Shown: positions 5,105 through 60,532, counted from the stretch's first letter. The stretch: DNA of 64,000 bases from an uncultured Bacillales bacterium (GCA_947302535.1 CAMYVX010000002.1:7341-71340), one strand, 5' to 3'. Notes: a model not told the origin generated them from the letters alone. Numbers and translations: made by a program.

Positions 5105-5332
5105 ATGGCATTTAAAAAAGTTAGACCACATAAGAAAGTATGTGTGTTCTGCAAGAACAAATCTAAATTCATTGATTATAAAGATGTTGAATTACTCAAG
5201 ACCATGATTACTCCAAATGGAAAAATTTCTCCACGTAGAGGTACAGGTACTTGCGCTAAACATCAAAGAGAATTAGCTGTAGCTATTAAGAACGCTAGAT
5301 TTATGGCGCTTCTTCCATACGTCCAAGACTAA
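5105..5332 (+). CDS. rpsR: 30S ribosomal protein S18
   Basis: [30 protein letters not shown] (Zn-binding Cys type). Confidence 0.97.
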
Positions 5333-5342
5333 TAATTGTTTG

Positions 5343-5484
5343 TGTAGCAGGATAGTCGCGATTTGCCTCAGTTGGCTAAAAATGACTTCCCTCGCAAGGC
5401 AGTTAGTCGAAGCATATGAAGAAGTCCTAAGTCTAGGGCTAAAATCAATGTAAATTAAGTCGTCTATAATGGGCGGCTTTTTTT
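5343..5484 (+). repeat. ~140-nt structured intergenic element, copy 1 (full length), ending in an intrinsic terminator
   Basis: TGTAGCAG...GTCGCGATTTGCCTCAGTTGGCTAAAAATG...TCGAAGCATATG...GGGCTAAA.TCAATGTAAATTAAGTCGTC...GGCGGCTTTTTTT; near-identical blocks at 7011 and 12548. Confidence 0.9.
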
Positions 5485-5542
5485 GTGTTATAATTAATTG
5501 AGATTTCTCTGTAAAATATTGCTAATATATTATCAATAATCA

Positions 5543-5576
5543 TTGAAAAATGATGAAAATATGCTAAAATATTAGC
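5543..5576 (+). promoter_or_regulatory. Putative promoter and operator of the hipB/hipA-like pair
   Basis: TTGAAA, 16 bp, TGc-TAAAAT (5565-5570); inverted repeat GCTAA-aata-TTAGC (5563-5576) overlaps the -10. Confidence 0.5.
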
Positions 5577-5578
5577 GT

Positions 5579-5869
5579 ATGGAAGAACAAGCATTACAAT
5601 TTATTACATATTATGAAAATCAGTTAGAAATAGCTAAACGGTTTGTTGCAATTAGAAAAAACAAAAAGGTGTCTCAAAAGAAGTTGTCTATTCTTTCTGG
5701 TGTTTCTTATGCCTCCATCAGAAGATTTGAAAAAACTGGAGATATATCTCTAGCTTCGTTGGTTAAAATGGCTTTAGCGTTACAGCTTTATGATGATTTG
5801 GACAATTTGTTCAAAAACCATCAAGAATACAAATCAATTGAGGAAATAATCAATGATCAGAAAGATTGA
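5579..5869 (+). CDS. XRE-family HTH protein, HipB-like antitoxin
   Basis: RKNKKVSQKKLSILSGVSYASIRRFEKTG HTH; overlaps the downstream HipA-like gene. Confidence 0.8.
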   Translation: MEEQALQFITYYENQLEIAKRFVAIRKNKKVSQKKLSILSGVSYASIRRFEKTGDISLASLVKMALALQLYDDLDNLFKNHQEYKSIEEIINDQKD

Positions 5870-6944
5870 TGTTATTGCCGATAAAATAAAAGTGGGAACG
5901 ATTGCTCTAACAAAAGACAATAGAGTGGCTTTTCAATATAGTGACGAATGGATAGAAAATGGCTTTTCCATTAATCCATTCAAGCTGCCTCTTTCAAGAC
6001 AGCTATTTTTTGCTACCTCACCCTACTTTAAAGGTTTATTTGGAGTTTTCGCGGATTCCTTGCCGGATAGTTATGGCGAACTGCTTCTAGAACGTTATTT
6101 AAAAAGCAAAAAAATAAAAATTGGTGAGATCACATGTCTTGACAGGCTTGCATATGTTGGCTCTTCTGGCATGGGTCTATTAGAATATGTTCCTGATTTG
6201 AGCGTTGATACCGATAGAAGTAATGTTGATTTTGATTTAATACAAAAAGAGTGCAACGATTTATTGGATTCTAAAGAAGTTGATAATATATATGAATTAT
6301 ATTCATTGGGCGGCTCTAGCGGAGGAGCTAGACCGAAATCACTAATTAAATATGATGGCGAAGATTATATTGTTAAATTTTCTTCTAGATTTGATCCAAA
6401 AAATATTGCTGAACTTGAATATAAATATATGTCCCTTGCTCGTAAAGCAGGAATAAATATACCAGATATTAAACTTGTGACATCAAAGAGCAGAAGTAAA
6501 TATTTTCTTATTAAAAGATTTGATAGAAATGGCGCAAAAAAGATTCATATGATAAGCGCAGCCGCTCTTTTAGAAGTCGATTTCAGAGCCCCTTCCCTTG
6601 ATTATAATGAATTGATCAAACTTACTAGAATATTAACAAAAAATGATGGTGATATTTTAGAAATATATAGAAGAATGGTTTTTAATGTTCTAATTGACAA
6701 TCAAGATGACCATGCGAAAAACTTCTCATTCATCTATGACAGCACGAACAAAACATATAGATTATCCCCTGCATACGACATAACTCCTGGTAAAACGTAT
6801 TATGGCGAGCACACAACTTCTATAAATGGAAAAGGGAAGAATATAACCGATGAGGATATGATAAAGGTTGCTATAAATAACAAAATAGATTCAAGTGTTG
6901 CTAAAAGCATTATTGAAAGATGCAAAAACGCTATAAAGAATTAG
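5853..6944 (+). CDS. HipA-family kinase toxin (type II TA)
   Basis: N-terminal couple domain (FQYSDEW, FADSLPD), GSSGGARPK loop, IKRFDR, FNVLIDNQDDHAKNFSF, LSPAYDI. Confidence 0.9.
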   Translation: MIRKIDVIADKIKVGTIALTKDNRVAFQYSDEWIENGFSINPFKLPLSRQLFFATSPYFKGLFGVFADSLPDSYGELLLERYLKSKKIKIGEITCLDRLAYVGSSGMGLLEYVPDLSVDTDRSNVDFDLIQKECNDLLDSKEVDNIYELYSLGGSSGGARPKSLIKYDGEDYIVKFSSRFDPKNIAELEYKYMSLARKAGINIPDIKLVTSKSRSKYFLIKRFDRNGAKKIHMISAAALLEVDFRAPSLDYNELIKLTRILTKNDGDILEIYRRMVFNVLIDNQDDHAKNFSFIYDSTNKTYRLSPAYDITPGKTYYGEHTTSINGKGKNITDEDMIKVAINNKIDSSVAKSIIERCKNAIKN

Positions 6945-7010
6945 CCGACGCAATTAAAAATGCAAGATTAATGGCACTTCTCCCATTCGTTGCAGACTAA
7001 TTAAACTCAT

Positions 7011-7154
7011 TGTAGCAGGGGAGGGCAGTCGCGATTTGCCTCAGTTGGCTAAAAATGGCTTTCCTCACAAAGCATTAATCGAAGCATATGAAGAAGTCCT
7101 AAGTCTAGGGCTAAATCAATGTAAATTAAGTCGTCCATAGTGGCGGCTTTTTTT
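7011..7154 (+). repeat. ~140-nt structured element, copy 2 (full length)
   Basis: Aligns with 5343-5484 along its whole length; same hairpins and terminator. Confidence 0.9.
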
Positions 7155-7474
7155 GTGCTGTCTGGGCGGTCTGTCGGGCGTCGTCAAGGCGTGCACGTTT
7201 CGTACGACTGCGTGTGAAGCAATTGGAGGCCTTCGTGTCGAAGCTTTGTCGGGCAGCTTGTCGTGCCGTCGTCGAAGTAGTCGTGGCAAAATTGGACAAC
7301 TGGCGGAGGGCAATTTTGGGGAAAGCGGATTTTAAACTAAACATGGAAAATGGGTTTGAACAATTACATAAGTATAATGAAACAATTGCTAACTCTAGAA
7401 AGTGATAGAAATGTATTTTCTATTTACTACTGACATGCTCTATAATAATTTCAATATTTGAGGCGATTGACTTT

Positions 7475-9643
7475 ATGAAACGGAAAAAACTAGCAACCTT
7501 ATTGGCATTATTCGCTACAACATTATGTGGTTTGGTGTCTGCTATTGCGTCTGGCAGCAACCACGACCCCATTATGAATAAAGCAGAAGAAATTCCTTAT
7601 CGAATTGATTTATCTTATGAAAATAAACAACTCACCAAAGAAATTGAATATAACTACGCCACATTTAAAGTAGTTAATGTCTATACATATCGAGGAAGTA
7701 AACTCAAATTTCTACAATATGATGTTTCTTACGATAACGAAAAAGTTGTACTTGGTAATGGCGCGTGGTTTGGCACGATTGGTGAAACCGATGTTTATCG
7801 AAGTTTAATTAAAGGCTTAACTTGTATTCACTTTGTGAACGGCTCCAATTTACTTGTTAAATACTCTTGGCATGAAAATTCAGGCAATGTTTATGAAGAA
7901 CAACCAGACTCCAACGGAGATGTTTATTTTAGTGGTTTAATGCCTTCATATTTTAGAGTTGAACCGTTAAATAGTAGTGGGGCCTCATTCTCTTCTTGTG
8001 AAATCTATTATGATTGTTTGGTTTCCCCAACTGATGAGCCTCAAGAACGCACTGCTTCTAATGTAGCCATGAAACAATCATTCTGTGGTGCTGACCCAGG
8101 AGATTTGTATCGCTATATTGACCCTGATCACTCCTTAGAGCGTACTCAAGTAGGCAATGACTATATCTTCGCAGAATACAATAAAACAATTGAGCAATCT
8201 TTAGACTTACATAACTTAGTTATGTCATTTAATTTTTCTTCCCCAATTGGTGGAAAAACCCACTACGAGGGAGTGAGATTAGATGATCCATTTGTGACTG
8301 ATTTAAATATTTGGCATGAAAATTCTGAACATACCAAAGTTGAATATGGCGAACAAACCTTGCATGTATCATTTACATTCAAAGGTTTTGGACATGTAAC
8401 CAATCATTCATTTACCGTGTTTGGTTATTATAGATCAACATCCCATTTTAGTGTTGTTTCTGCTGATAATGTTAGAAAACAAGCTAATGAAACTATCCCA
8501 GAAGAAAACGCTGTTCTTATTTGGTCATATATTTCTTTCATTGGATGGGGATCTATTGACGCTTTTGATCAAACAGCATGCCAAGAATATGTTGGATGCT
8601 CCATGTTCTATAGAACAATTAATTTCAAAGACTTACAACATTTACAATTAGATGAGCATCCATTTACCACTGTCGGAGAGCATGAATTATCTTTTAGATT
8701 AGAAGAATACTACACACTCCATGCGTCATACTATGTCTATGACGAAGATAATTATCTTAAAACAATTGTCTACAATGGTTTCAAAAAAGAAATTGAACCA
8801 GGTTTTGACTTTGAAGGATATTTTGAAAGTGGAGCGGCGTCTGTAGACCTTATGTACTATGATGGAACGTTTGAGAATATTGTCATCGATGAAAATCATG
8901 TTGATTTATCAAAAGTTAACACATACGTTGAAGGATTATATCCTTACTTTGTTACAATCAAGGGCAAAAAATATAAGCAATTCGTTTCTGTGGTCTTAAC
9001 TGATATCGGCGAAGATGAATATAACGTTACTTACACAACCAGTCCAGATAATTATGAGAATGTTTATGCGTGGGGATTTGATTATTATGCTGCTTTCAAT
9101 CAAGTGTATATCAAGTCTATTACTACAAGCTCTATGGGTTATCGTGCAGTTTGCTTTATGGATTTAGCTCATCCAGATAAGAATAACTTCACTCGTTGTG
9201 GTACCTATGCAGTTGATAGTGATCATCATCAATTAGTGTTGTTTGGACAACTATGGGCAAGTAGAGTTTCCTTCTATCACCAAGAAGGAGATGGAGAAAG
9301 AGAATTTAAACTCAGCGAACATTGTGAAGTTGAAACCAGTTATGCAGTCAACAAAACATTAATACCTACAGAAGATTCTTATATGTGGAATCATTATGGA
9401 GAAACAACCGATAGATTCTACATCTTTAAGACCGAAAATAACGAGATGAAAGTCACGCTTAACAGTTTGACTATCAGAACAACGTTATCTTATCTCAATG
9501 AAGAGAAGACACAGATTTCGTTTAATATCCCATTCATCAGCTTCGATGGGTCATTAGTTAGTATTATTTTACGTGCAACAATTAATTATTCAGACAACTC
9601 AATATTTATTGAAACACCAAGTGAACTTATCTATGACGACTAA
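7475..9643 (+). CDS. Large exported or surface protein with a probable Ig-like (Big_3-type) segment
   Basis: N-terminal signal MKRKKLATLLALFATTLCGLVSAIA; VDLSKVNTYVEGLYPYFVTIKG resembles bacterial Ig-like group 3 repeats; remainder unrecognised. Confidence 0.7.
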   Translation: MKRKKLATLLALFATTLCGLVSAIASGSNHDPIMNKAEEIPYRIDLSYENKQLTKEIEYNYATFKVVNVYTYRGSKLKFLQYDVSYDNEKVVLGNGAWFGTIGETDVYRSLIKGLTCIHFVNGSNLLVKYSWHENSGNVYEEQPDSNGDVYFSGLMPSYFRVEPLNSSGASFSSCEIYYDCLVSPTDEPQERTASNVAMKQSFCGADPGDLYRYIDPDHSLERTQVGNDYIFAEYNKTIEQSLDLHNLVMSFNFSSPIGGKTHYEGVRLDDPFVTDLNIWHENSEHTKVEYGEQTLHVSFTFKGFGHVTNHSFTVFGYYRSTSHFSVVSADNVRKQANETIPEENAVLIWSYISFIGWGSIDAFDQTACQEYVGCSMFYRTINFKDLQHLQLDEHPFTTVGEHELSFRLEEYYTLHASYYVYDEDNYLKTIVYNGFKKEIEPGFDFEGYFESGAASVDLMYYDGTFENIVIDENHVDLSKVNTYVEGLYPYFVTIKGKKYKQFVSVVLTDIGEDEYNVTYTTSPDNYENVYAWGFDYYAAFNQVYIKSITTSSMGYRAVCFMDLAHPDKNNFTRCGTYAVDSDHHQLVLFGQLWASRVSFYHQEGDGEREFKLSEHCEVETSYAVNKTLIPTEDSYMWNHYGETTDRFYIFKTENNEMKVTLNSLTIRTTLSYLNEEKTQISFNIPFISFDGSLVSIILRATINYSDNSIFIETPSELIYDD

Positions 9644-9652
9644 GGAGCCTTA

Positions 9653-9757
9653 GCTTCCTCAACAGGGCATTAATCGAAAGCGAACGGTAAGGGCTCATAG
9701 ATTGGGCTAAATCAATTATGTTTGATGAATTAAGTCGTCTATAATGTGCGGCTTTTT
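9653..9757 (+). repeat. Structured element, copy 3 (5'-truncated, diverged)
   Basis: GCTTCCTCAACAGGGCATTAATCGAAAGC...GGGCTAAATCAA...AATTAAGTCGTCTATAATGTGCGGCTTTTT aligns to the 3' two-thirds of copies 1 and 2. Confidence 0.8.
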
Positions 9758-9816
9758 GTGGCACTTTTGTGACAACTAGTGTGTTAGGATATGGTTAACA
9801 AAGGAGTACTTTGAAC

Positions 9817-10104
9817 ATGAAACAAGAATTATTAAAAGGTTTAACTGAAGAACAAATTGCTAGAGTTAAAGCTTGTAAAAACCAAGAAGAGCTTTTGGCT
9901 TTGGCCAAAGAAGAAGGCATTGAACTTACTGACGAGCAACTAAACGCGATTAGCGGTGGAGGAGCTTGTAGTGTTGCTTCAGATATTGGAGATTTTTTCA
10001 ATCCATTTGATTGCCCAGAATGTGGATGTAACGATATTAAGGCTGTGGAAGGCAAAGGCAATTTATTTGAATGCCAAGGTTGCGGCTTTAGATGGAGGGA
10101 GTAA
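9817..10104 (+). CDS. Nif11-type leader peptide precursor 1 with Cys-rich zinc-ribbon-like core
   Basis: Leader ...LLALAKEEGIELTDEQLNAISGG, core CPECG-x13-CQGCGFRW; RBS AGGAG at 9802. Confidence 0.8.
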   Translation: MKQELLKGLTEEQIARVKACKNQEELLALAKEEGIELTDEQLNAISGGGACSVASDIGDFFNPFDCPECGCNDIKAVEGKGNLFECQGCGFRWRE

Positions 10105-10112
10105 GAAAAAAT

Positions 10113-10400
10113 ATGAAAAAAGAATTATTAAAAGGTTTAAGCGAAGAACAAATCACTAAAGTAAGAGCGTGCAATAATAGTGATGAATTATTGGCGTTAG
10201 CAAAAGCAGAAGGTATCGAATTAACTGATGAGCAACTTTCTACCATTAGTGGTGGTGGTGCTTGTAGCGTTATTTCAGATATTGGAGACAAAATCAATCC
10301 ATTTGATTGTCCATTCTGTGGATATAACGGTAAATTTGATAAAGACGGTAATGAAATTACCTGTCCGAAATGTGGAAAAACTTGGAGAGATAATGGTTAA
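10113..10400 (+). CDS. Nif11-type leader peptide precursor 2 with Cys-rich zinc-ribbon-like core
   Basis: Paralog of 9817-10104: LLALAKAEGIELTDEQLSTISGG, core CPFCG...CPKCGKTW. Confidence 0.8.
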   Translation: MKKELLKGLSEEQITKVRACNNSDELLALAKAEGIELTDEQLSTISGGGACSVISDIGDKINPFDCPFCGYNGKFDKDGNEITCPKCGKTWRDNG

Positions 10401-10428
10401 TTTTAAATATTAGAATATAAGTTTTCCG

Positions 10429-10705
10429 TATAAAAAAGAATTATTAAAAGAATTAACCGAAGAAGAAACCGCAAAAGTAAAAGTGTGCAAATCACAAGAT
10501 AGTCTTTTAGCATCAGCTAAAGAAGAAGGAATTGAGCTTACAGAAGAACAATTAGAAGCGGTTTCTGGCGGTGGATGTTTCAGCAGTTCAGGTAAATGTG
10601 GAATGTGTGGAAACAAAGACATCTCATAATCGTGGCTATGCAGGAGATTACTGCACTTGCAAATGTAGAAAATGCGGCCATACTTGGAACATATATATCA
10701 ACTAA
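10429..10705 (+). pseudogene. Third Nif11-type precursor, disrupted (no ATG; frameshift near 10624)
   Basis: Frame 1 gives KKELLKELTEEETAKVKVCKSQDSLLASAKEEGIELTEEQLEAVSGGGCFSSSGKCGMCGNKDIS*; the +1 frame continues HNRGYAGDYCTCKCRKCGHTWNIYIN*. Confidence 0.8.
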
Positions 10706-10739
10706 TTATTAAATTAATCAGTTTGAATAACATCAAGAT

Positions 10740-10793
10740 AATTAAGTCGTCCTAAAGGCGGCTTTTTTGTGCTGTCTGGGCGGTCTGCCCGAC
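10740..10793 (+). repeat. Structured element, copy 4 (terminator end only) plus the 3' flank shared with copy 2
   Basis: AATTAAGTCGTCCTAAAGGCGGCTTTTTTGTGCTGTCTGGGCGGTCTG; the GTGCTGTCTGGGCGGTCTG flank is identical to that after copy 2. Confidence 0.8.
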
Positions 10794-10829
10794 TATGAAA
10801 AACCACCGGATTTGGATATCTATTACAAT

Positions 10830-10855
10830 AAAAAACGCACGGATGTCCGCGCGTT
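10830..10855 (-). terminator. Intrinsic terminator of the minus-strand surface protein gene
   Basis: Minus strand AACGCGCGGA-ca-TCCGTGCGTTTTTT. Confidence 0.65.
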
Positions 10856-10861
10856 CTATGT

Positions 10862-12151
10862 CTAATTTATACTATGTACTTTTTTCTTTTTGATAATAAG
10901 TAAAGTGGTTAGAGATAAAGTAGCAATAGCGGCAACAACAATTAATAATGGAGTGTTATCAGAACCGAAATCATAAAAGACGCTACTAGTGGATGTGCTC
11001 TTTACTGAGAAGGCTCTATTTGGAGAGCTAGCTCTATCAATATAATCATATAAGCCATAATCTTTATAGAAAACTACATAGTCATATCTATATAAGGCTA
11101 CTTCTCTAAGATAAGTAGAATTTTCTTTAGCCACTGAGGTTTTAAGTAAATCTCTAAATGAATAAGATTCATATTGTAAATCAAAGAAGAAATAAACCCA
11201 ATCTTCGTTAGAGAAGCTTCTAGTTTCTCCGGTACAAGTAAATTTATCTAACATCTTTTGTGCGTATATTTCAGTACGCTCAATATCATCTACTGAGGCA
11301 CAGTTATAATTATCTCCAAATTTGCCTTCTAACATTTTGAAGTTACATGAACTTTCTACATCATCTTGATTAGTGGTTTGATTCCATTTTGAATCCCAGC
11401 TATATTGAGGTCCATTTGGATCGTTTCTAGTAAAGATAATACCTGAACACCAAATATCTTGAGAGGTAGTTGCGACTAATTTATTTAATGTAGTGTCAAA
11501 TTCCATTTTCACAAAAATAGATGTATAGCTAAATAAGAAATCAAAATAACAATAGCTTACAAAATAATGTGTCGCGTCAGCATCTAACCAATTGATATCG
11601 CATTCAGTGAGATCTAAAGTAACAGTAGTGCCTGATGGCATAAATTTAAATTTTTCATCTCTCATGCCGAGGTTATAATCAGCATAATCCCAATCGTCTA
11701 CTCTAATAGTGTTTGGACTATCGGATAGATTTCTAACTATATCTTCTTTACACATATTATAAATGGTGACACCATCTAGAGATGTGATTCCTGCTGGAGT
11801 GGAAATAGGAGTTCTAAAGATTCTACTTTTTGGAAGATTAACTGGTAATTCAGTAATTCCAAGTCGAGGACCAATCACAGTGATATCAAACAATTCTCCG
11901 TTTGATTCGGTATAACTAAAATCTCCAGTAAAACACCAAACAACCGCCTTAACTCCTTCAGCATTTAAATATTGATCAGCATTTTCCATTGCTCCATATT
12001 GATCAACTCCGACATAGGTTCTTTTCATGGTCACTTCATCTTCTGCTTTAGCGATAACTGGTTTATTAGTCTTGTTGATACGTAAAGAAGATAATCCAGC
12101 AATAGATATGAGCCCTAATAACGAAGTAGCAATGATATTTCTAATTTTCAT
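10862..12151 (-). CDS. Exported protein with C-terminal membrane anchor; possible carbohydrate-binding module
   Basis: Signal peptide MKIRNIIATSLLGLISIAGL; IIFTRNDP...WDSKWNQT resembles starch-binding-type modules; C-terminal YRYDYVV..KDYG, hydrophobic helix, KKKK; RBS AGGAGAG supports the ATG at 12151. Confidence 0.7.
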   Translation of the reverse strand: MKIRNIIATSLLGLISIAGLSSLRINKTNKPVIAKAEDEVTMKRTYVGVDQYGAMENADQYLNAEGVKAVVWCFTGDFSYTESNGELFDITVIGPRLGITELPVNLPKSRIFRTPISTPAGITSLDGVTIYNMCKEDIVRNLSDSPNTIRVDDWDYADYNLGMRDEKFKFMPSGTTVTLDLTECDINWLDADATHYFVSYCYFDFLFSYTSIFVKMEFDTTLNKLVATTSQDIWCSGIIFTRNDPNGPQYSWDSKWNQTTNQDDVESSCNFKMLEGKFGDNYNCASVDDIERTEIYAQKMLDKFTCTGETRSFSNEDWVYFFFDLQYESYSFRDLLKTSVAKENSTYLREVALYRYDYVVFYKDYGLYDYIDRASSPNRAFSVKSTSTSSVFYDFGSDNTPLLIVVAAIATLSLTTLLIIKKKKVHSIN

Positions 12152-12547
12152 AATATTCACTCTCCTAAACAAATAAACAAAGTATCTAAAGTTATATAAC
12201 TTTTAACTTCGTAATTCAAGAAATTATTGATTTAATACGATTCATTCTAAAAAACATGAGAAAATAAAAAAACGCATTTTTCTAGCGCTAACAATCTCTA
12301 TTCAATAATTAACACAGATAACTTACTCACAAACATTAATCTTAAGCACACAAACTTAATATGTTTGACACTAAAGAAGATCTACTAACACTAGATTATT
12401 TCTTACTCTCTCTACTCCCCACGCACTCCGCCTTCAACAGCAAAAGGAAAGCTGAAATGCCCGCTCGCAAACTCAACACTTCACGATATGATTTAGATAG
12501 GCGGCTTTAGACAAAATTGAATGGATCGTCTTAGACAACGACACTTT

Positions 12548-12686
12548 TGTAGCAGGGCAGTCGCGATTTGCCTCGTTTGGCTAAAAATGACTTTCCTCGC
12601 AAGGCAGTTAGTCGAAGCATATGGTTAGGCCTTGAATTTGGGCTAAATCAATGTAAATTAAGTCGCCCATAACGGACGGCTTTTTT
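12548..12686 (+). repeat. ~140-nt structured element, copy 5 (full length)
   Basis: Aligns with copies 1 and 2; substitutions keep the hairpins pairable. Confidence 0.9.
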
Positions 12687-12743
12687 CTATTGCGATAGGT
12701 TGCTGTTATTTTATTCATTAAGACAAAAAAGTATAATGAATAC

Positions 12744-14597
12744 ATGAGAATAAAAAGTGTATTTTTAGCAACATCAGTATTGATTTCACTATGTTCATGT
12801 AAATCTAAACAGAACTATTTTACCATTTCATGGCTAAATTATGATCGTAGTGTGCTTGAAATAGATAGAGTTGAAGAAGGTTTGTTACCTTCTTATGATG
12901 GAGATGAGCCAACAAAACTTAGTGATGACTCTTTTGACTATGATTTTATTGGTTGGGATAAAGAAATTGAAGTAGCGTCAAAAGATACTGAGTATATTGC
13001 TATCTATCAAGAAATAAAAAGAAAAGGGAATATCGTTGCTAGTCAAGAAAGTGGTTTTTATAATGAACCATTTTATTTGGAATTAAATGCCCCTAGGGGA
13101 TTTGACATTTATTACTCCTTAGATAACACAATTCCTGATGAAAACTCTTTGTTATATAATGAACCAATTTATATTGAGGATGTATCCTATAAAGAAAACT
13201 ATTATTCTATGAAGCAAGGTATTTCATCATTAGATGTTTATTATCCTCAAGAGCTAATAGATAAGTGCCAAATTGTCAAAGCTATAGCGATAAACAAAAC
13301 TAGTCAAGAAAGAACAAAAGTATATGAATACAATTACTTTGTTGGTTATCAAAACAAATTAGGTTATTCAAGTATTCCTATCATCACAATGAACGTCAGC
13401 GAAGAGGACTTGTACGACTACGAAAAAGGAATATATGTTACCGGGAAAATTTATGATGAATCTCCTCATGAAGGATACCCAGAAACATATCCGGCAAATT
13501 ACAATCAAAAAGGAAAAGAGTGGGAAAGAGCCGCAAATTTCAAGTATTTTAATGAATTTGGAGATCTAGAACTAGAACAAAATATCGGTATTCGTATCCA
13601 TGGAGGCTGGTCTAGAGCGTTCAATCAAAAGTCATTTAATTTATATGCAAGAAAAGAATATGATGGGAATTCCACTTTTCAAAAAACCTTCTTTTCAAAT
13701 ATAAATGCCCATTCGTTGATGTTAAGAAGTGGCGGATATCGCGATACCACATTAACCAAATTAAGAGACTCATTAAACCAAACCCTTTCTTCTAATGAAG
13801 GTTTTGCGGTTCAACAAAGTCACCCGGTTATCTTATTTTTAAATGGAGAGTACTGGGGAAGCTATAACCTTCAAGAAAGATATTCTGATAATTATGTTCA
13901 AGAACATTATCCTGACATTAATAAGAAAGACGTTTTAATTATCAAAAACGATGAAATAGACGAAGGCGAAGAAAGCAAATTCTATCTTTATGAAGAACTA
14001 GTAGATTTTTTTAAAGATCGCACTTTTGAAAGTGAAACAAATTATGAATTAGCAAAGAGTTATATTGATGTTGATGAATTTGCTTCGTATATGTCCACAC
14101 AACTATATGTTGGTAATATTGATTGGCCAGGGAACAATGTCCGTGTATTTAAAGATACTTCTAAAGATGATTCTAAGTGGCATTTTATGATGTTTGATAC
14201 AGATGATTCTTCAAATATATTACCCGCTAAATGTAGTGCGATTGTTGATCCATTTTTAAGAAGCTCACACTGGAAAAGTGGTCCTTTAGAAGAAGATTGC
14301 TTATTAGGTTTGATTTTATCAAAATTAATTGCTAATCAAGAATTCAAAATGTTATTTAGAGATACGTTTATCAGAATAGGCGAGCAAGTGTTTTCTCTTG
14401 AACATGTTGATGATTATTTAAAAGAAATGAAGACTAGATTAGCAACGCCAATGGTTAACAATTATAAAAGATTTGTTAGTAACAATTATAGTGAACAGTA
14501 CTTTCTTGATAAGGTAAATGTTATCGAGACATTTTTTGAAGAAAGACACGATTATGCGATAAGCTTCTTAAATCAACACATTCCAATCGCTAACTAG
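12744..14597 (+). CDS. CotH kinase-family lipoprotein with chitobiase/Fn3-associated domain
   Basis: Lipobox LCSC; SGFYNEPF...IYYSLDNTIP domain; GIRIHGGWSR, KSFNLYARKEY, NGEYWGSYNLQER, DWPGNN, FDTD CotH motifs. Confidence 0.85.
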   Translation: MRIKSVFLATSVLISLCSCKSKQNYFTISWLNYDRSVLEIDRVEEGLLPSYDGDEPTKLSDDSFDYDFIGWDKEIEVASKDTEYIAIYQEIKRKGNIVASQESGFYNEPFYLELNAPRGFDIYYSLDNTIPDENSLLYNEPIYIEDVSYKENYYSMKQGISSLDVYYPQELIDKCQIVKAIAINKTSQERTKVYEYNYFVGYQNKLGYSSIPIITMNVSEEDLYDYEKGIYVTGKIYDESPHEGYPETYPANYNQKGKEWERAANFKYFNEFGDLELEQNIGIRIHGGWSRAFNQKSFNLYARKEYDGNSTFQKTFFSNINAHSLMLRSGGYRDTTLTKLRDSLNQTLSSNEGFAVQQSHPVILFLNGEYWGSYNLQERYSDNYVQEHYPDINKKDVLIIKNDEIDEGEESKFYLYEELVDFFKDRTFESETNYELAKSYIDVDEFASYMSTQLYVGNIDWPGNNVRVFKDTSKDDSKWHFMMFDTDDSSNILPAKCSAIVDPFLRSSHWKSGPLEEDCLLGLILSKLIANQEFKMLFRDTFIRIGEQVFSLEHVDDYLKEMKTRLATPMVNNYKRFVSNNYSEQYFLDKVNVIETFFEERHDYAISFLNQHIPIAN

Positions 14598-23319: not shown

Positions 23320-24420
23320 TTAATAAGGTCTTAATTGCTTCATAGAGAGCCACATCATTCTTAAGCCAAGTAAGATGATGAAGAACATGACAGCATAACT
23401 TGCAAGTAAGAAGCCTAAGATCATCGCTAAGATAGCGGGGCATAAGCTTGCCCATGCGGTAATCTTTAAGCAATCCCAGAACTTGAGATAGTTGAAGATA
23501 TTCTTCTTTCCCCTTGTTAATAAGAAGATCATTAAGCCCATAAATAAGACTAAGGCTAAATAGATACCTAAATAGATGAATGTTGATCTTAAGACATTTT
23601 CACCCTTAGAAGTTTCATAAGATTTATCTACGATAACAGACCAATTATCAAAGACGGCTTCATAATATTTTGTGCTTCCTTTAACTAATTTTGAATCAAC
23701 ATCTAAAGTAAAGTCGATAATGCTTGTTCCTTTTTTCACATTCTTCCAATCAGAAGTAAAGTTGGTATAAGCACTTAATGTTAATGAATCATTTTGATAA
23801 ATATAGATGTATAAACCATGCTTAGCAAGAATCATAAAGGAAGGATGATATGTATCATGAGCAGGGACATCAGAATCTTTGCCTTTGATTTCGGTAGAAT
23901 GCTTAACCATGATATAGCTATCACTAGTTAAATAATTAACTAAGTGTTTAACTTCTTCTCTAGTGTCGGAAGTATAAAATACTTCTAATTCGATTTGACC
24001 AGAGACGTGGCCAATGTTTCTATAAATAGAATAATCAGCATACTCTTCTTGATCTTTAAATGAAGCGGAAACATCTTCTCCTTCATCTAAGTAGTGGAGT
24101 TCTTGATCTTCACCAATAACAAAGTCTTGTTTATTCTCTTGGAAATATTCGCTCGCTAATGTTAATTGAGTGTCCATTCCTTGAAGATTAGTTCCTAAAT
24201 AGTTTGAACCATCAACCTTTGCTGCAGAAACAGTTAAAGGAATAACTGGTAACATGGCCGCGATTAATATAAAGATAACAATCGTCCACCATTTACTAGT
24301 TTTACTTGCTTCAATTGCGGCTTGGTTAGAGAACAAACTCTTGAAGAATTTAGCTATACCAATCATCATGGTTGAAGGTTTTTTATTAGCTTTTGATATT
24401 TTTACATTTTGTTTTGCCAT
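23320..24420 (-). CDS. Membrane protein with a large extracellular loop
   Basis: One N-terminal TM helix, soluble domain, three C-terminal TM helices. Confidence 0.7.
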   Translation of the reverse strand: MAKQNVKISKANKKPSTMMIGIAKFFKSLFSNQAAIEASKTSKWWTIVIFILIAAMLPVIPLTVSAAKVDGSNYLGTNLQGMDTQLTLASEYFQENKQDFVIGEDQELHYLDEGEDVSASFKDQEEYADYSIYRNIGHVSGQIELEVFYTSDTREEVKHLVNYLTSDSYIMVKHSTEIKGKDSDVPAHDTYHPSFMILAKHGLYIYIYQNDSLTLSAYTNFTSDWKNVKKGTSIIDFTLDVDSKLVKGSTKYYEAVFDNWSVIVDKSYETSKGENVLRSTFIYLGIYLALVLFMGLMIFLLTRGKKNIFNYLKFWDCLKITAWASLCPAILAMILGFLLASYAVMFFIILLGLRMMWLSMKQLRPY

Positions 24421-24566
24421 AATACTCACTTACCTTTTTGCTTGTATATTTTAAGTGAAGAATAATCTTTTTACAAATAAAATTGCGTGTGCGCTCGTAC
24501 ATTCGTACAAATAAAGGTTGTAGAGAAGTGAAAAATAGATATAAAATAATCCCGCCTATTATTTAT

Positions 24567-24959
24567 GGGGTCGTATTGGATTCGACGGGGATCGGCTAGG
24601 CTTTAGTTGCAGTGCGCTGATAACGCTAACTATCAAACAAAAATAACTGACAACAGTTATATGAGAGCACCTCGTGCTCAAGCATTCTGCGCTGCTTAAT
24701 CAGCACTCGACGTTAGAGTCCAACCACTAGGCTGGGCAGAACATCTACCAAGGTTTTAGCCTTTCACGCTTGGAATAGGTGTCATAACAAAAGGATAGTG
24801 AATGGGAGTGGATTTGTTACTCATTCATGAAATGAAGTTAATCTAGTATGCTGGAGTGAGTCGATAAGCGAAAGCATATGAAGCTCAATTATCGTCTAAA
24901 CTGTAGACATTATTGAAGAGTCATCCTCGGACACGGTTTCGATACCGTCGGCTCCACCA
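24567..24959 (+). ncRNA. ssrA: tmRNA (transfer-messenger RNA); tag (A)DNSYMRAPRAQAFCAA* at 24649-24699
   Basis: 5' GGGGTCGTATTGGATTCGAC, 3' T-arm and CGGCTCCACCA with G3:U; AATAACT upstream of the resume codon; short tag ORF ending AA. Confidence 0.95.
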
Positions 24960-27073: not shown

Positions 27074-28561
27074 ATGGAAAATAATGAACAAATAGAAAAG
27101 AAATCAAAACTTGATTTCTCTAAGTATGGTAAGGTTATCTCTTTCTTAGCTTTAGAAATAATCGCAATTATTTCTTTTTCTTTAGGGAATTCCTTTATCT
27201 TGTATACCTCGATTAGTGCGGTACTTTTCGTTCTTTTACTTTTAGTAACTTGGGTCGAAATTAAAAAAGAAGGCTATCCAACATTTGCATTCTTCTTAAT
27301 ACCAATATTAGCCTTCGGGCTATTTTGCGTTATCTCTAACTTTAATAAGGATGTGAATTATTCTCTTTCTGGTGGATTATCCGCTTTTGTTCCGATAGGA
27401 TTAGCGGTATTCCCTTGTTGTGGATATTTATTAGCCCATGAAAAGAACTTTAAGATTTCCCAAGCTTTATTAGTTATCTTTGTGGCGATTGGAGTTTATA
27501 CATTTATCAATTTCATCGGGACGATGATTCAATTCTCCCCTTTCCATACACTTAGATATGCGGATAAATATTTATTCTATAATGGTGAGATTGTTGAAAT
27601 CTCAGTAGGTAATATGGCTTATGCTTTAATTGGCTTTAGATTCCAAGAAGTGAGTATAGAGTATTATTTGATGTATCCTATTATTCTTTTAGTGTCTGGC
27701 ATTTTCCTTTTCTTTATTAAATATAAAGATAATAAGAAATTATTTATCACTTACGCTTGTTTAACTGGTTTAGCCTTTATTAGTATTCTTTTTTCCATTA
27801 CTAAATTTATGGCTATTATTTTAGCCTTACTTATTTATATCTATGTTCTGATTTTATTAACAGCGAAGAAGGTTCTTGACCTTAAATATACAAGAATCAT
27901 TTTCATTATTATGGGCGCTATTACGGGATTAGTCGTATTGGTCTTCTTATTGAACGCTCAAGCGATTGCTGGCTCTCCTATTAAATTTATTCAAGATCTT
28001 ATTAGCGGTAACGGCTTTTTAAATCGTGTCTTTAATGGTAATAGACTGGCTCTAAATTACAATATAGCCGCTGATGGACTTTTCTCAAAATTTAAATTAA
28101 ATGGTATTATGACAGGCCCGATTGAAGGTTATACCAATACCTATGATTTTTATGAATATTACCATGTGGAAGCAATCTCAAATACTAATTCATTCTTCTT
28201 TGATACTATTTTGACTTCTGGTACAATTGGACTTTTATTCCTGATTATTGTTGTTGGATTTATTATTTATTCAATTTATAAATATTGCAAAAATAGCCGC
28301 GATTTAATTGAAAATAAGGCTGTAATTACTGCTTTTATTAGCGGATTCTTCATCTACTCATTCGTTGCCTATGATATGTCATTGATGATTTTCAAGAGTG
28401 ATTTGTTCCCATTCTACACAAATAACTTATTTATTATTTCATTGATTCTAGTTGGTTATATGAATGTTCTTCCTTTAACTAGTGAAGTGGTTAAAAACGA
28501 AGCGCCAATTGAATCTACAATAATGAGCAAAGGAGGAGACAATGATGAAATCAGTTTCTAA
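27074..28561 (+). CDS. Polytopic membrane protein, possibly O-antigen ligase/polymerase-like
   Basis: About 12 TM helices, large loop, then NSFFFDTILTSGTIG (Wzy-like); lies next to a glycosyltransferase cluster. Confidence 0.6.
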   Translation: MENNEQIEKKSKLDFSKYGKVISFLALEIIAIISFSLGNSFILYTSISAVLFVLLLLVTWVEIKKEGYPTFAFFLIPILAFGLFCVISNFNKDVNYSLSGGLSAFVPIGLAVFPCCGYLLAHEKNFKISQALLVIFVAIGVYTFINFIGTMIQFSPFHTLRYADKYLFYNGEIVEISVGNMAYALIGFRFQEVSIEYYLMYPIILLVSGIFLFFIKYKDNKKLFITYACLTGLAFISILFSITKFMAIILALLIYIYVLILLTAKKVLDLKYTRIIFIIMGAITGLVVLVFLLNAQAIAGSPIKFIQDLISGNGFLNRVFNGNRLALNYNIAADGLFSKFKLNGIMTGPIEGYTNTYDFYEYYHVEAISNTNSFFFDTILTSGTIGLLFLIIVVGFIIYSIYKYCKNSRDLIENKAVITAFISGFFIYSFVAYDMSLMIFKSDLFPFYTNNLFIISLILVGYMNVLPLTSEVVKNEAPIESTIMSKGGDNDEISF

Positions 28562-36064: not shown

Positions 36065-36094
36065 GATAGTAAAAATTTAAGAATTGTAATATAG

Positions 36095-36210
36095 TATTTA
36101 TCGGGAGCTAAGCGAACTTGGCTGAGAGGATTCTTCTTCGAATCGACCGTACCTGATCCAGATAATGCTGGCGTAGGAAAATTTGTTTTGTCCTCCGCCA
36201 CAGGAGGTTT
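36095..36210 (+). promoter_or_regulatory. TPP riboswitch with SD-sequestering hairpin
   Basis: GGGAGC...GCTGAGAGG...GACCGTACCTGATCCAGATAATGCTGGCGTAGGAA core; CCTCC/GGAGG hairpin covers the RBS of thiT. Confidence 0.92.
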
Positions 36211-55075: not shown

Positions 55076-55152
55076 GCGCCTGTAACTCAGCTGGATAGAG
55101 TACCATCCTCCTAAGATGGGAGTCGGACGTTCGAATCGTCTCAGGCGCGCCA
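55076..55152 (+). tRNA. tRNA-Arg(CCT)
   Basis: GCGCCTG acceptor, anticodon arm CCATC-ctCCTaa-GATGG, TTCGAAT T-loop, encoded CCA. Confidence 0.95.
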
Positions 55153-55223
55153 AAATAGGTAAAAACAATTAGCAAGAAAAACTATTGTTTTATTAAAGTG
55201 TTTGTCTTAAAATACTTCTTGCT

Positions 55224-55299
55224 GGGTCTGTAGCTCACCTGGGAGAGCGCCTCCATGGCATGGAGGAGGTAGCCGGTTCGATCCCGGTCAGATCCACCA
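55224..55299 (+). tRNA. tRNA-Ala(GGC)
   Basis: G3:U70 in the acceptor stem, anticodon arm CCTCC-atGGCat-GGAGG, TTCGATC T-loop, encoded CCA. Confidence 0.95.
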
Positions 55300-58972: not shown

Positions 58973-60532
58973 ATGAAAAAGAAATTTAGAACACCGTTTA
59001 TTGTTCTGACAATTATCTCTTTTGTCTTACTCGTTGCCTTCATTGGATTGTATTTGGGTTCCTTCTTTGCATTGTTCTCCGGAGCTGATGGCAAAGATAT
59101 TTTCGAATTCATTTTCAAGATTCCATCTGATGGTTTTGTTAAGGCAATCACATTCCAAGATTTTCTTAGTGAAAAATTCACTATCATCAACTCTGTTTCG
59201 TTGATCGTTTTCTTGGTCTTAATTGTTTTAGGAATTATTTTAAGCATTGTCTTAAATAGAAAGAAAGCCAGCGCGATTGTTTGGACTTTAATCTCTTCTA
59301 TTTTAATTGCTGTTCCTGCTTTATTCTTATGTCCAATTTTCTTAGACACATTAACTGTCTTTGAAGGTGAACCAGACGCTATCGTGAGAGTCTTATTCAT
59401 CTGTGTCTTTGTGTTTGGTATTCTTTATCCAATCATTGTCTTTGTTAATTTATTCATCGCACATGCGTACGTTAAAGAATGCTTAAAACCAGTTGAAGAT
59501 GCGCCTCTTGCTTTAGGCGATTCTGATTTCGCCGAACCAGAACCAGTGGAATATGAACAACTTGATGTTGAACCAGTTCCTACTTTCTTACCTGAACCAG
59601 AACCAGAACCAGAACCAGCTAAGGCTCCAGAAGTCTTAGATGCTAATTCTCTTGCTTCTGTTTTAAAAGATGTTGTTCGTGAAATCGTTCGTGATGAAAT
59701 TGCACGCAATAACGCTAATAATCAACGCGAAGAAAAAGCTACAACTGATAATCACAGTATCGTTGGTGCGACCTTCGGTGGACCATTAGTCGTTCAATAC
59801 TTTGGCAGCTACAATCCTGTTGCTACTCCAGCACCTGCTCCAGCTCCAGCACCTGCACCAGAGCCAGCACCAGAGCCAGCACCAGAACCAAAACCTGAGC
59901 CAAAGCCAGAACCAGCTCCAGCACCTGCACCAGAACCAGAACCAGCTCCAGCACCTGCACCAGAACCAGCTCCAGCACCAGAGCCAGCACCTGCACCAGA
60001 GCCAGTGGTCGTAGTTGTTGAACCAACTCCTGCTCCAGCACCAGTTGAACCAGCACCTGCACCAGAGCCAGCTCCAAAGGCCCCAATTGTTCGTATTTCT
60101 TTCCAAGAAAGAATTGTTGATGCTGATAAAGATATTCAAGATGCATATAACGAAATTAAAAATGAAATCTTATCCTATGGTGTAAAATCCCGTGTTTCCT
60201 CTAGTGGAGATACCTTCAGATTACACCGCAAGACATACGTCAAAGTTACTGTCGCAGGTAAGAGTTTGAAATTATACTTCGCTTTGAATCCTGATAACTA
60301 TCGTGATTCAACTATTCCAGTTCAAGATGCCGGAAATAAGGACACATATGCCGAAATTCCTCTCGTCTTTAAGGTCAGAAGTGGTTTATCCTTAAGAAGA
60401 TGTAAACAACTTATCCAAGATGTCATGGAAGTCGATCACTTAGAACAAAAAGAAGTCGAAACCGTGAACTGGGTTAAAGAAATTAAAGCCGAGTTAAAAG
60501 AAAAAGCCAAAGCCGAAAAAGCCGCTAAATAG
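58973..60532 (+). CDS. Membrane protein with Pro/Ala/Glu-rich linker and C-terminal globular domain
   Basis: Four N-terminal TM helices, (PA/PE)n region, C-terminal SFQERI...IKNEILSYG...GKSLKLYFAL domain. Confidence 0.85.
   Translation: MKKKFRTPFIVLTIISFVLLVAFIGLYLGSFFALFSGADGKDIFEFIFKIPSDGFVKAITFQDFLSEKFTIINSVSLIVFLVLIVLGIILSIVLNRKKASAIVWTLISSILIAVPALFLCPIFLDTLTVFEGEPDAIVRVLFICVFVFGILYPIIVFVNLFIAHAYVKECLKPVEDAPLALGDSDFAEPEPVEYEQLDVEPVPTFLPEPEPEPEPAKAPEVLDANSLASVLKDVVREIVRDEIARNNANNQREEKATTDNHSIVGATFGGPLVVQYFGSYNPVATPAPAPAPAPAPEPAPEPAPEPKPEPKPEPAPAPAPEPEPAPAPAPEPAPAPEPAPAPEPVVVVVEPTPAPAPVEPAPAPEPAPKAPIVRISFQERIVDADKDIQDAYNEIKNEILSYGVKSRVSSSGDTFRLHRKTYVKVTVAGKSLKLYFALNPDNYRDSTIPVQDAGNKDTYAEIPLVFKVRSGLSLRRCKQLIQDVMEVDHLEQKEVETVNWVKEIKAELKEKAKAEKAAK
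59820..60078 (+). repeat. Low-complexity coding repeat (CCAGCA/CCAGAG/CCTGCA units encoding PAPAPE)
   Basis: Tandem hexamer codon pairs; they explain the spurious minus-strand ORFs here. Confidence 0.9.

Follow-up and report, generated by a model that had tools for sequence, protein, structure and literature searches.

A repeated element behind rpsR as the probable left end of non-autonomous, cargo-carrying mini-transposons in uncultured ruminant-gut Bacilli

The stretch of DNA analysed here (64,000 nt from an uncultured Bacillales bacterium, GCA_947302535.1, CAMYVX010000002.1:7341-71340; the window) carries behind rpsR a cassette-like array of genes separated by copies of a ~140-nt element (c1 to c5), which is very probably the rpsR-proximal left end (LE) of mini-transposons, a family whose members are non-autonomous and carry cargo. 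The original prediction had described five copies, one of them truncated at its 5' end and one reduced to its terminator, all on the same strand, absent from the rest of the window and each placed at a junction between unrelated modules. A repeat search and a covariance model (CM) built from seven copies agree with this description. The matches, all on the + strand, lie at 5340-5486, 7013-7156, 9634-9761, 10740-10771 (weak) and 12545-12689, with none elsewhere in the 64 kb, and the modules that they separate, checked with Pfam, are rpsR, hipBA, a 722-aa open reading frame (ORF), Nif11-like genes, a 436-aa ORF on the - strand and cotH. Four features had escaped the earlier description: a partial second copy of the rpsR 3' end (rpsR', 6938-7000), a GC-rich module (7155-7368), a right end (RE2) before c5, and the full-length occurrence elsewhere of the subtype to which c3 belongs (B). 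Further strains were found by an exact look-up of the RpsR protein, and a scan of species-representative genomes with RpsR, together with one metagenome pattern scan, gave 21 further element loci (designated by L numbers below). The features of the array are the following.

5105-5332, + strand: rpsR (ribosomal protein S18; Pfam Ribosomal_S18, E=2.6e-25), its 3' end being the attachment landmark
5333-5342, + strand: spacer of 10 nt from the rpsR stop codon to the tip of the putative transposon
5343-5484, + strand: c1, full LE of type A, terminator at 5457-5479 (CM 158.9 bits)
5579-6944, + strand: hipB-like helix-turn-helix (HTH) gene (5579-5869) and hipA (5853-6944) (Pfam HTH_3, HipA_C, Couple_hipA)
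6938-7000, + strand: rpsR', a diverged (~75% identical) 63-nt copy of the last ~60 nt of rpsR, stop codon included
7011-7368, + strand: c2, a complete "empty" mini-transposon with LE (7011-7154, terminator 7128-7149), GC-rich middle from 7155, and right end RE1
7475-9643, + strand: 722-aa ORF without a Pfam family, between the c2 unit and c3
9653-9757, + strand: c3, LE of subtype B truncated at 5', spanning about LE position 45 up to the terminator (CM 74.6 bits)
9811-10705, + strand: three Nif11-like peptide genes in tandem
10740-10790, + strand: c4, LE remnant with the terminator (10744-10764) followed by ~25 nt from the start of the GC-rich module
10862-12172, - strand: 436-aa ORF without a Pfam family, between the c4 remnant and RE2
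12487-12543, + strand: RE2, right end of a sister subtype (type D), ~57 nt, finishing ...TAGACAACGACA and aligned with RE2 of L102, L100, L101, L089 and L015
12548-12686, + strand: c5, full LE with terminator, a variant of type A (CM 160.6 bits)

The copies differ in what follows them. Neither the GC-rich module nor a right end is found downstream of c1, while the module after c2 spans 214 nt (7155-7368) and finishes with RE1, ...TTGAACAATTACA, at 7368; its first ~25 nt recur after c4, which matches positions 114-163 of the unit with 92% identity. The truncated c3 is 90% identical to full type-B LEs in L003 and L004. The likeness of RE2 to its other copies reaches upstream to about 12440, and a 4-nt spacer, CTTT, separates it from c5, which has no right end downstream; cotH starts at 12744, and GdpP and DnaB, which are native neighbours, lie from 17.7 kb on, as in L087. 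The hipBA block is 96% identical to that of strain L003. The stop codon of hipA falls within rpsR', which encodes ...ELADAIKNARLMALLPFVAD* and has more in common with the rpsR of other species (L014 and L015, 85-88% identical) than with that of the window; the same junction of hipA with rpsR' is found in L003, and the tip of c2 sits 10 nt past the rpsR' stop. This tip (7011-7027) carries a 5-nt duplication, TGTAGCAGGGGAGGGCAG, compared with the usual TGTAGCAGGGCAG. The third Nif11-like paralog (10410-10705) has no intact ORF, with ATA AAA AAG in its start region and an in-frame stop, and in strains of runs X1 and X3, 11 nt are inserted near 10618-10623. When the 722-aa protein was looked up exactly in other contexts, only this locus was returned.

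Boundaries of the unit and its insertion site

In the window (7011-7368), L015, L088, L091/L095 and L104, the LE and the GC-rich segment form a single block of ~350-355 nt. This empty unit, present in six loci (those of L091 and L095 being nearly identical), has no reading frame that is open in all copies. Its conservation starts abruptly at TGT(A/G) and ends abruptly at (T/C)ACA, with unrelated flanks beyond, and these tips are found in all five complete units as well as in the cargo-bearing unit of L010. Nucleotides 17-56 of the LE are 72% complementary to the tail of the GC-rich module over 39 nt. Comparing the first 70 nt of each unit with the reverse complement of its last 70 nt gave z=4.5-8.8 against shuffled sequences in 5/5 units, the match being equidistant from both tips in L088 and L104, for which the alignments were printed; RE2 pairs in the same way with the type-D LE (z=6.1). 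The terminal ~57 nt at each side are imperfect inverted repeats in register, and it is this complementarity, together with the sharp TGT/ACA ends, that identifies the ~140-nt element as a left end and the tail of the GC-rich module as the right end RE1. The right end contains three TTGGAC(A/G)A motifs and the left end three AGTCG motifs and one inverted TTGGCTAA. It was also considered whether the right-end tail could be a degenerate copy of the rpsR 3' end, which was rejected as the likeness is not significant. The GC-rich module has no significant similarity to rpsR, either inverted or direct. The ~355-nt unit has the features of MITEs (miniature inverted-repeat transposable elements), being short, non-coding, bounded by terminal inverted repeats and present in several copies, with target duplications in cargo-bearing members only.

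The attachment site is the 3' end of rpsR itself, and it is best seen by comparing L009 and L010, which are different species with identical rpsR 3' ends. In L009, which is empty, the site reads ...GACTAA TTACGGTCTTCA AAAAAGTAAGAAAAC AAGTCGTCC...GGGCGAC TTTTTT (short form ...GACTAATTACGGTCTTCAAAAAAGTAAG...), the end of which is the native terminator. L010 carries at this place an insert of 2.59 kb with one lipoprotein-like ORF of 677 aa. Its left junction is ...TTACGGT(CTTCA)/TGTGTTAGGACAG (short form TGTGTTAGG) and its right junction GGACGATCACA (...GATCACA)/(CTTCA)AAAAAGTAAGAAAAT AAGTCGTCC (short form after CTTCA, AAAAAGTAAG). Once joined, the flanks of L010 are the empty site of L009, and the 5 bp CTTCA are perfectly duplicated; a unit with TGT and ACA at its ends has thus been inserted 12 nt past the rpsR stop and before the native terminator. 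The cargo unit of L089 is likewise flanked by GTTGT on both sides, and the flanks of the L002 unit are TCTTG and TCTTT. Over the whole set, the LE starts 7-12 nt past the stop of rpsR or rpsR' in 17 cases from 16 loci, and every CM match above 27 bits is co-oriented with its array, a few opposite-strand matches being found at 18-25 bits. Units also follow one another at the site. Junctions of a right end with the next left end, with spacers of 4-8 nt, occur in the window, L002, L089, L091, L098, L100, L101 and L102, and two to four units or remnants share one site in the window, L089 and L098.

Folding, transcription and spread between hosts

The original prediction had proposed, as one of two readings, a repeated structured non-coding RNA or cis-regulator, and could place the element in no RNA family that it considered. 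The second point is borne out by Rfam 15, in which no copy has a match at gathering thresholds or at E<=5. A terminator scan detected the terminators of c1, c2 and c4. Folding of the + strand is better than that of shuffled sequences for c1 (z=-2.4) and c2 (z=-2.1) and no better for c3, c5 and the - strand. In an alignment of 32 copies, which was fitted to the model and so favours the structure, the terminator helix and one hairpin keep their pairing through one-sided (G-C/G-U/A-U) and a few two-sided changes. The remaining helices show one compensatory pair or none and are mostly invariant in sequence. The statement that the copies differ while keeping their pairing therefore describes the terminator helix and one hairpin, and does not extend to the other helices. 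Between GCGATTTG and TAAGTCGT, a candidate antiterminator pairing, 94% of cells are complementary, which equals shuffled sequences, and a riboswitch-like switch fold was rejected because this complementarity comes with no compensatory change. Features expected of a riboswitch or attenuator are also lacking in that covariation is confined to the terminator and one hairpin and the downstream genes are unrelated. As a main account of the element, the RNA reading finds no support: it is mostly the primary sequence that is conserved, and the right end has its inverted-repeat partner in the first ~57 nt.

The terminator itself is likely to be of use. Metatranscriptome contigs span rpsR and the LE, and one of them ends at 5487 (the T-run lies at about 5487); summed contig depth is zero by 5524 in 4/4 runs, with the proviso that contigs from a mixed community can hide rare molecules. 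This coverage hints that the LE is transcribed as a 3' untranslated region (UTR) of rpsR that ends in a working-looking terminator. Since insertion parts rpsR from its own terminator, a built-in one would be a sensible adaptation.

Comparison between strains bears out the suggestion that modules are gained and lost at the element boundaries. The block 7013-9667 (c2 and the 722-aa ORF) is missing from the contigs of runs X1 and X3, which have 53 nt of a type-B left end instead. Other cargo is found in L002 (rpsR, a c5-like copy, ABC-transporter genes, a GC-module tail and another copy) and in L003 (rpsR, then one full-length c3-subtype copy, a gene for a nucleotidyltransferase, hipBA, rpsR' and a second full copy of that subtype). 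In the closest element-less relatives (L007, L008, L009, L013 and L028), rpsR is followed only by its native terminator, whose stem in L007 and L028, AAGTCGTCC...GGGCGGCTTTTT, is nearly the same as the internal stem of the element. The hosts are uncultured ruminant-gut Bacilli, between which the elements have spread horizontally. LEs share 92-95% identity where the rpsR genes of the hosts share 68-83% at the nucleotide level (RpsR protein down to 61%), and just 76% in a pair of strains whose rpsR genes are 99.6% identical; from this discordance it follows that the history of the element is uncoupled from that of its hosts. A blastn comparison of rpsR', c2 and the GC-rich module with plasmids and phages gave no match, and neither the left end nor the head of the GC-rich module turned up when viral contigs were scanned for their patterns.

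Cargo, sister subtype and other features

The cargo of the arrays, mostly recognised by eye or from precomputed Pfam marks, includes HipBA, MNT/HEPN-like (nucleotidyltransferase/HEPN) pairs, GNAT proteins, lipoproteins, surface proteins and an HTH-NUDIX-like ORF (by eye). No TnsB/TniA, TnsC or TniQ/TnsD was found in the arrays or among the scanned ORFs of the window. An element of the IS200/IS605 type stands directly after the LE terminator in L096 (1297-2851, oriented), L103 and L004 (from about 2806 onward), with the junction TTTTTTTGT/CTGAGCCATCGTGCGA.... Its ends are rich in hairpins, and it holds, beside a neighbouring ORF, a Y1 TnpA that was identified by eye. It was considered as a driver of the family and rejected, as it has ends of its own and is a separate insertion.

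The sister subtype extends the range of sites. In L101, a type-D left end lies 12 nt past tRNA-Ala(CGC) and is followed by cargo, RE2 and a type-A LE, and in L088 the unit behind rpsR is of type A and has a type-D LE after it, so that both subtypes occur at both kinds of site. The L101 island (9304-14450), beside tRNA-Ala(CGC), looks low in G+C and holds type-D and type-A units with small cargo genes; its neighbours secA, prfB, uvrB and folD look richer in G+C (by eye) and encode Ala/Pro-rich proteins. The island would place the elements in a different host lineage. Two loci also carry inverted pieces of their target: in L098 (6387-6418), 36 nt of the rpsR 3' end stand inverted just after the left-end terminator, and in L101 (about 9510-9560), an inverted pseudo-tRNA-Ala follows the left-end terminator and adjoins the real tRNA-Ala(CGC). 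The common type-A unit has no rpsR-matching segment on either strand.

Elsewhere in the window, ARAGORN found only a distant tmRNA and two tRNAs. The tmRNA gene lies at 24567-24959, tRNA-Arg(CCT) and tRNA-Ala(GGC) at 55076-55299, and a TPP (thiamine pyrophosphate) riboswitch at 36091-36196. The coding region at 59571-60088 contains long tandem repeats of 6 to 18 nt of the Pro-Ala/Pro-Glu type, and two ORFs, of 369 aa (23320-24429, - strand) and 495 aa (27074-28561, + strand), have no Pfam family at E<=1e-5.

Interpretation and comparison with known systems

The findings are best accommodated if each unit extends from 5'-TGT(A/G)... to ...(T/C)ACA-3' with its cargo, if any, between LE and RE, the left end also holding a hairpin and an intrinsic terminator in the direction of rpsR. 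A transposase supplied in trans would insert such units one way only, 7-12 nt past the rpsR stop and before the native terminator, each insertion duplicating 5 bp of the target. The enzyme would presumably be of the DDE type, of the Tn7/Tn5053/Mu kind, and guided by a selector that reads the rpsR 3' end. As insertion cuts the rpsF-ssb-rpsR operon from its own terminator, that of the LE probably takes over its termination. Repeated insertions would stack the units head to tail, 4-8 nt apart, and deletions and recombination between repeated ends or terminators would leave LEs without a right end or truncated at 5', which could account for the cassette-like array. The other of the two original readings, a recombination or attachment site driving accretion of cargo, is in part retained here. 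Tandem accretion at the rpsR 3' end and an enzyme encoded elsewhere both stand, while the attC-like site has to be replaced by TGT...ACA tips, inverted repeats and 5-bp duplications.

Read in this light, c4, the 436-aa gene and RE2 would together be a cargo unit decayed at its 5' side, and c3 is a type-B LE without its first ~45 nt. The copies c1 and c5 appear to be full LEs whose remainder was lost, perhaps via recombination of the LE terminator with a native-type terminator; TTTTTTTGTGTTATAAT, the flank downstream of c1, looks like the native one of L007 and L008. The 722-aa gene, which stands outside c2, is not a simple product of transposition, and illegitimate or homologous recombination has also shaped the array of the window, in which we can only infer the order of events.

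Several observations weigh against a transposon origin. No transposase or integrase was seen in the ~25 arrays whose ORFs were scanned or read through, so that the transposase must act in trans. The motifs of the two ends gave no consistent model of transposase-binding sites and no clear repeat array. None of the four testable empty units has a matching target duplication (c2, with CTCAT/TAAGT, L015, L088 and L091), for which one must suppose a later rearrangement, or that copies recombined with one another, and the spacers between stacked units vary from 4 to 8 nt instead of being strictly 5. The junction of hipA with rpsR' and the 5'-truncated copies are not simple transposition products. 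Finally, the strong target immunity described for classical Tn7-like elements (PMC11014353) conflicts with the stacking of units at one site.

In a rival reading the element is portable homology, and it is mainly general or homology-facilitated illegitimate recombination of foreign rpsR-downstream segments that would have built and reshuffled the array, with no dedicated transposition at all. The left boundaries of the partial copies vary (-60 in rpsR', about +45 in c3, the terminator only in c4), a fragment of another species' rpsR 3' end lies inside the array, and a block was replaced between strains (7013-9667 against 53 nt of a type-B LE). This would however leave unexplained the sharp tips, the in-register inverted repeats and the perfect 5-bp duplications at an empty site, as well as the near identity of LEs that stand equally far from rpsR in hosts whose rpsR genes are 68% identical, and we consider it improbable as the origin of the family; recombination is probably a secondary process acting on the array. 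A functional structured RNA (a sRNA from the 3' UTR, or a riboswitch-like or antitermination leader for read-through into cargo, needed once per cassette) would be in keeping with the better-than-shuffled folding of c1 and c2 on the + strand and not on the - strand, the preserved pairing of the terminator and one hairpin, transcription together with rpsR, and a 5' segment able to pair with the 5' arm of the terminator in 94% of cells. It is nonetheless very improbable, given that there is no Rfam family, that c3 and c5 fold like shuffled sequences, that the antiterminator shows no compensatory change and that the first 57 nt are explained as the inverted repeat of the right end. The downstream genes are in addition functionally unrelated, and the conservation of sequence across hosts reflects transfer and not structural selection. 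A secondary RNA role for the terminator belongs to the transposon explanation.

An attC-like or att site for a tyrosine or serine recombinase, in an integron-like or CIME-like array (CIME, cis-mobilizable element), would account for repeats on the same strand at each cassette junction, for small cassette-like cargo that includes a toxin-antitoxin pair, and for an array without a mobility gene. The junctions, though, consist of 5-bp duplications and TGT/ACA tips with no shared crossover core, the boundaries of the copies are not constant, hairpins with G-U pairs and a T-run make a terminator rather than a folded recombination site, and no integrase was seen in or beside the ~25 arrays inspected, which makes this reading exceedingly improbable. 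The inverted targets that follow some left ends (the rpsR 3' end in L098, the pseudo-tRNA-Ala in L101) could also suggest RNA-guided movement with a guide encoded in the left end, similar to that of CRISPR-associated transposons (CAST) or of IS110 with its bridge RNA. We give it hardly any weight, because such a match to rpsR is missing from the common type-A unit on both strands and no CRISPR repeat or tracrRNA-like Rfam match was found; the 5-bp duplication and the TGT/ACA tips fit protein-guided and RNA-guided relatives of Tn7 alike. The 5' end of a group II intron, an IS200/IS605 end, a dif/Xer-like site and a retron were rejected by reasoning, since there is no intron match in Rfam, loop lengths vary, and the tips and duplications point elsewhere.

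Returning to the mini-transposon family, a more speculative extension may be put forward, which we regard as possible and rather doubtful: a clade of gut/rumen Bacilli would keep an integron-like platform for gene capture, made of transposase-less, mostly single-gene mini-transposons served by one machinery in trans at no fewer than two homing sites, at least the rpsR 3' flank and the position 12 nt past tRNA-Ala(CGC). The enzyme or selector might be of an undescribed kind, and the inverted target copy might be the homing determinant in some members. In any case, an apparently new RNA or attC-like element is resolved into a recognisable mechanism, which shows how uncultured ruminant-gut Bacilli gather accessory genes (toxin-antitoxin pairs, peptide precursors, surface proteins) and pass them from one species to another. 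Should the trans-acting enzyme be found, the family could provide a compact, modular and site-specific insertion tool for low-GC Gram-positive bacteria and a test case for transposon stacks that escape target immunity.

Parts of this behaviour are familiar from other systems. Natural miniature Tn7-type elements and MITEs are non-autonomous and moved in trans, and laboratory mini-Tn7 donors are comparable. The gene-less ~355-nt unit is like them in having both ends, no coding capacity and copies in several genomes, but most members of the rpsR family hold cargo, of one gene or a few, and are not dispersed, keeping to one or two homing sites. Integron arrays resemble the rpsR arrays in their one-directional, small and mostly single-gene cassettes, a repeat at each junction, an enzyme not encoded in the cassettes and new units apparently added beside a fixed landmark; they differ in that no integron integrase and no attC architecture were seen here, where transposon tips with target duplications are found. 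In Firmicutes, integrative and conjugative elements (ICEs) of the ICESt1/ICESt3 type and CIMEs accumulate in tandem at ribosomal-protein or tRNA genes, at their 3' ends, using tyrosine integrases and identical att cores. Both kinds of element accrete where a conserved gene has its 3' end and include decayed members without mobility genes of their own, and rpsR' resembles a displaced gene end, but the evidence from the rpsR elements points to transposition.

The behaviour may be called Tn7-like, although membership of that family could be claimed only with the proteins in hand. TGT/ACA tips and this kind of att-site behaviour are known from Tn7-like elements (PMC11014353, PMC8649781), and the rpsR elements share with them the tips, the 5-bp duplication, the single orientation and a fixed short distance beyond an intact conserved gene. 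Like the Tn7-like islands at glmS, tRNA genes and comM, they carry toxin-antitoxin, defence and surface cargo and grow at their site. The rpsR elements insert closer to their gene, 7-12 nt past the stop, than is known for glmS and tRNA sites, where the distance is ~23-33 nt (30-33 nt in PMC10293859). In a limited search of the literature, which is no proof of novelty, we found no paper joining rpsR with a Tn7-like element or an attachment site, a wider search turned up nothing relevant, and the phrase "ribosomal protein" is absent from the two Tn7 surveys checked. The rpsR elements further differ in that no array inspected contains tnsA, tnsB, tnsC or tniQ, and in their long (~57 nt) in-register inverted repeats and their stacking despite the target immunity that would be expected. 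What stands out in this comparison is the use of rpsR as an attachment landmark and the insertion between the stop and the terminator of an essential operon, by elements that bring a terminator of their own in the proximal end.

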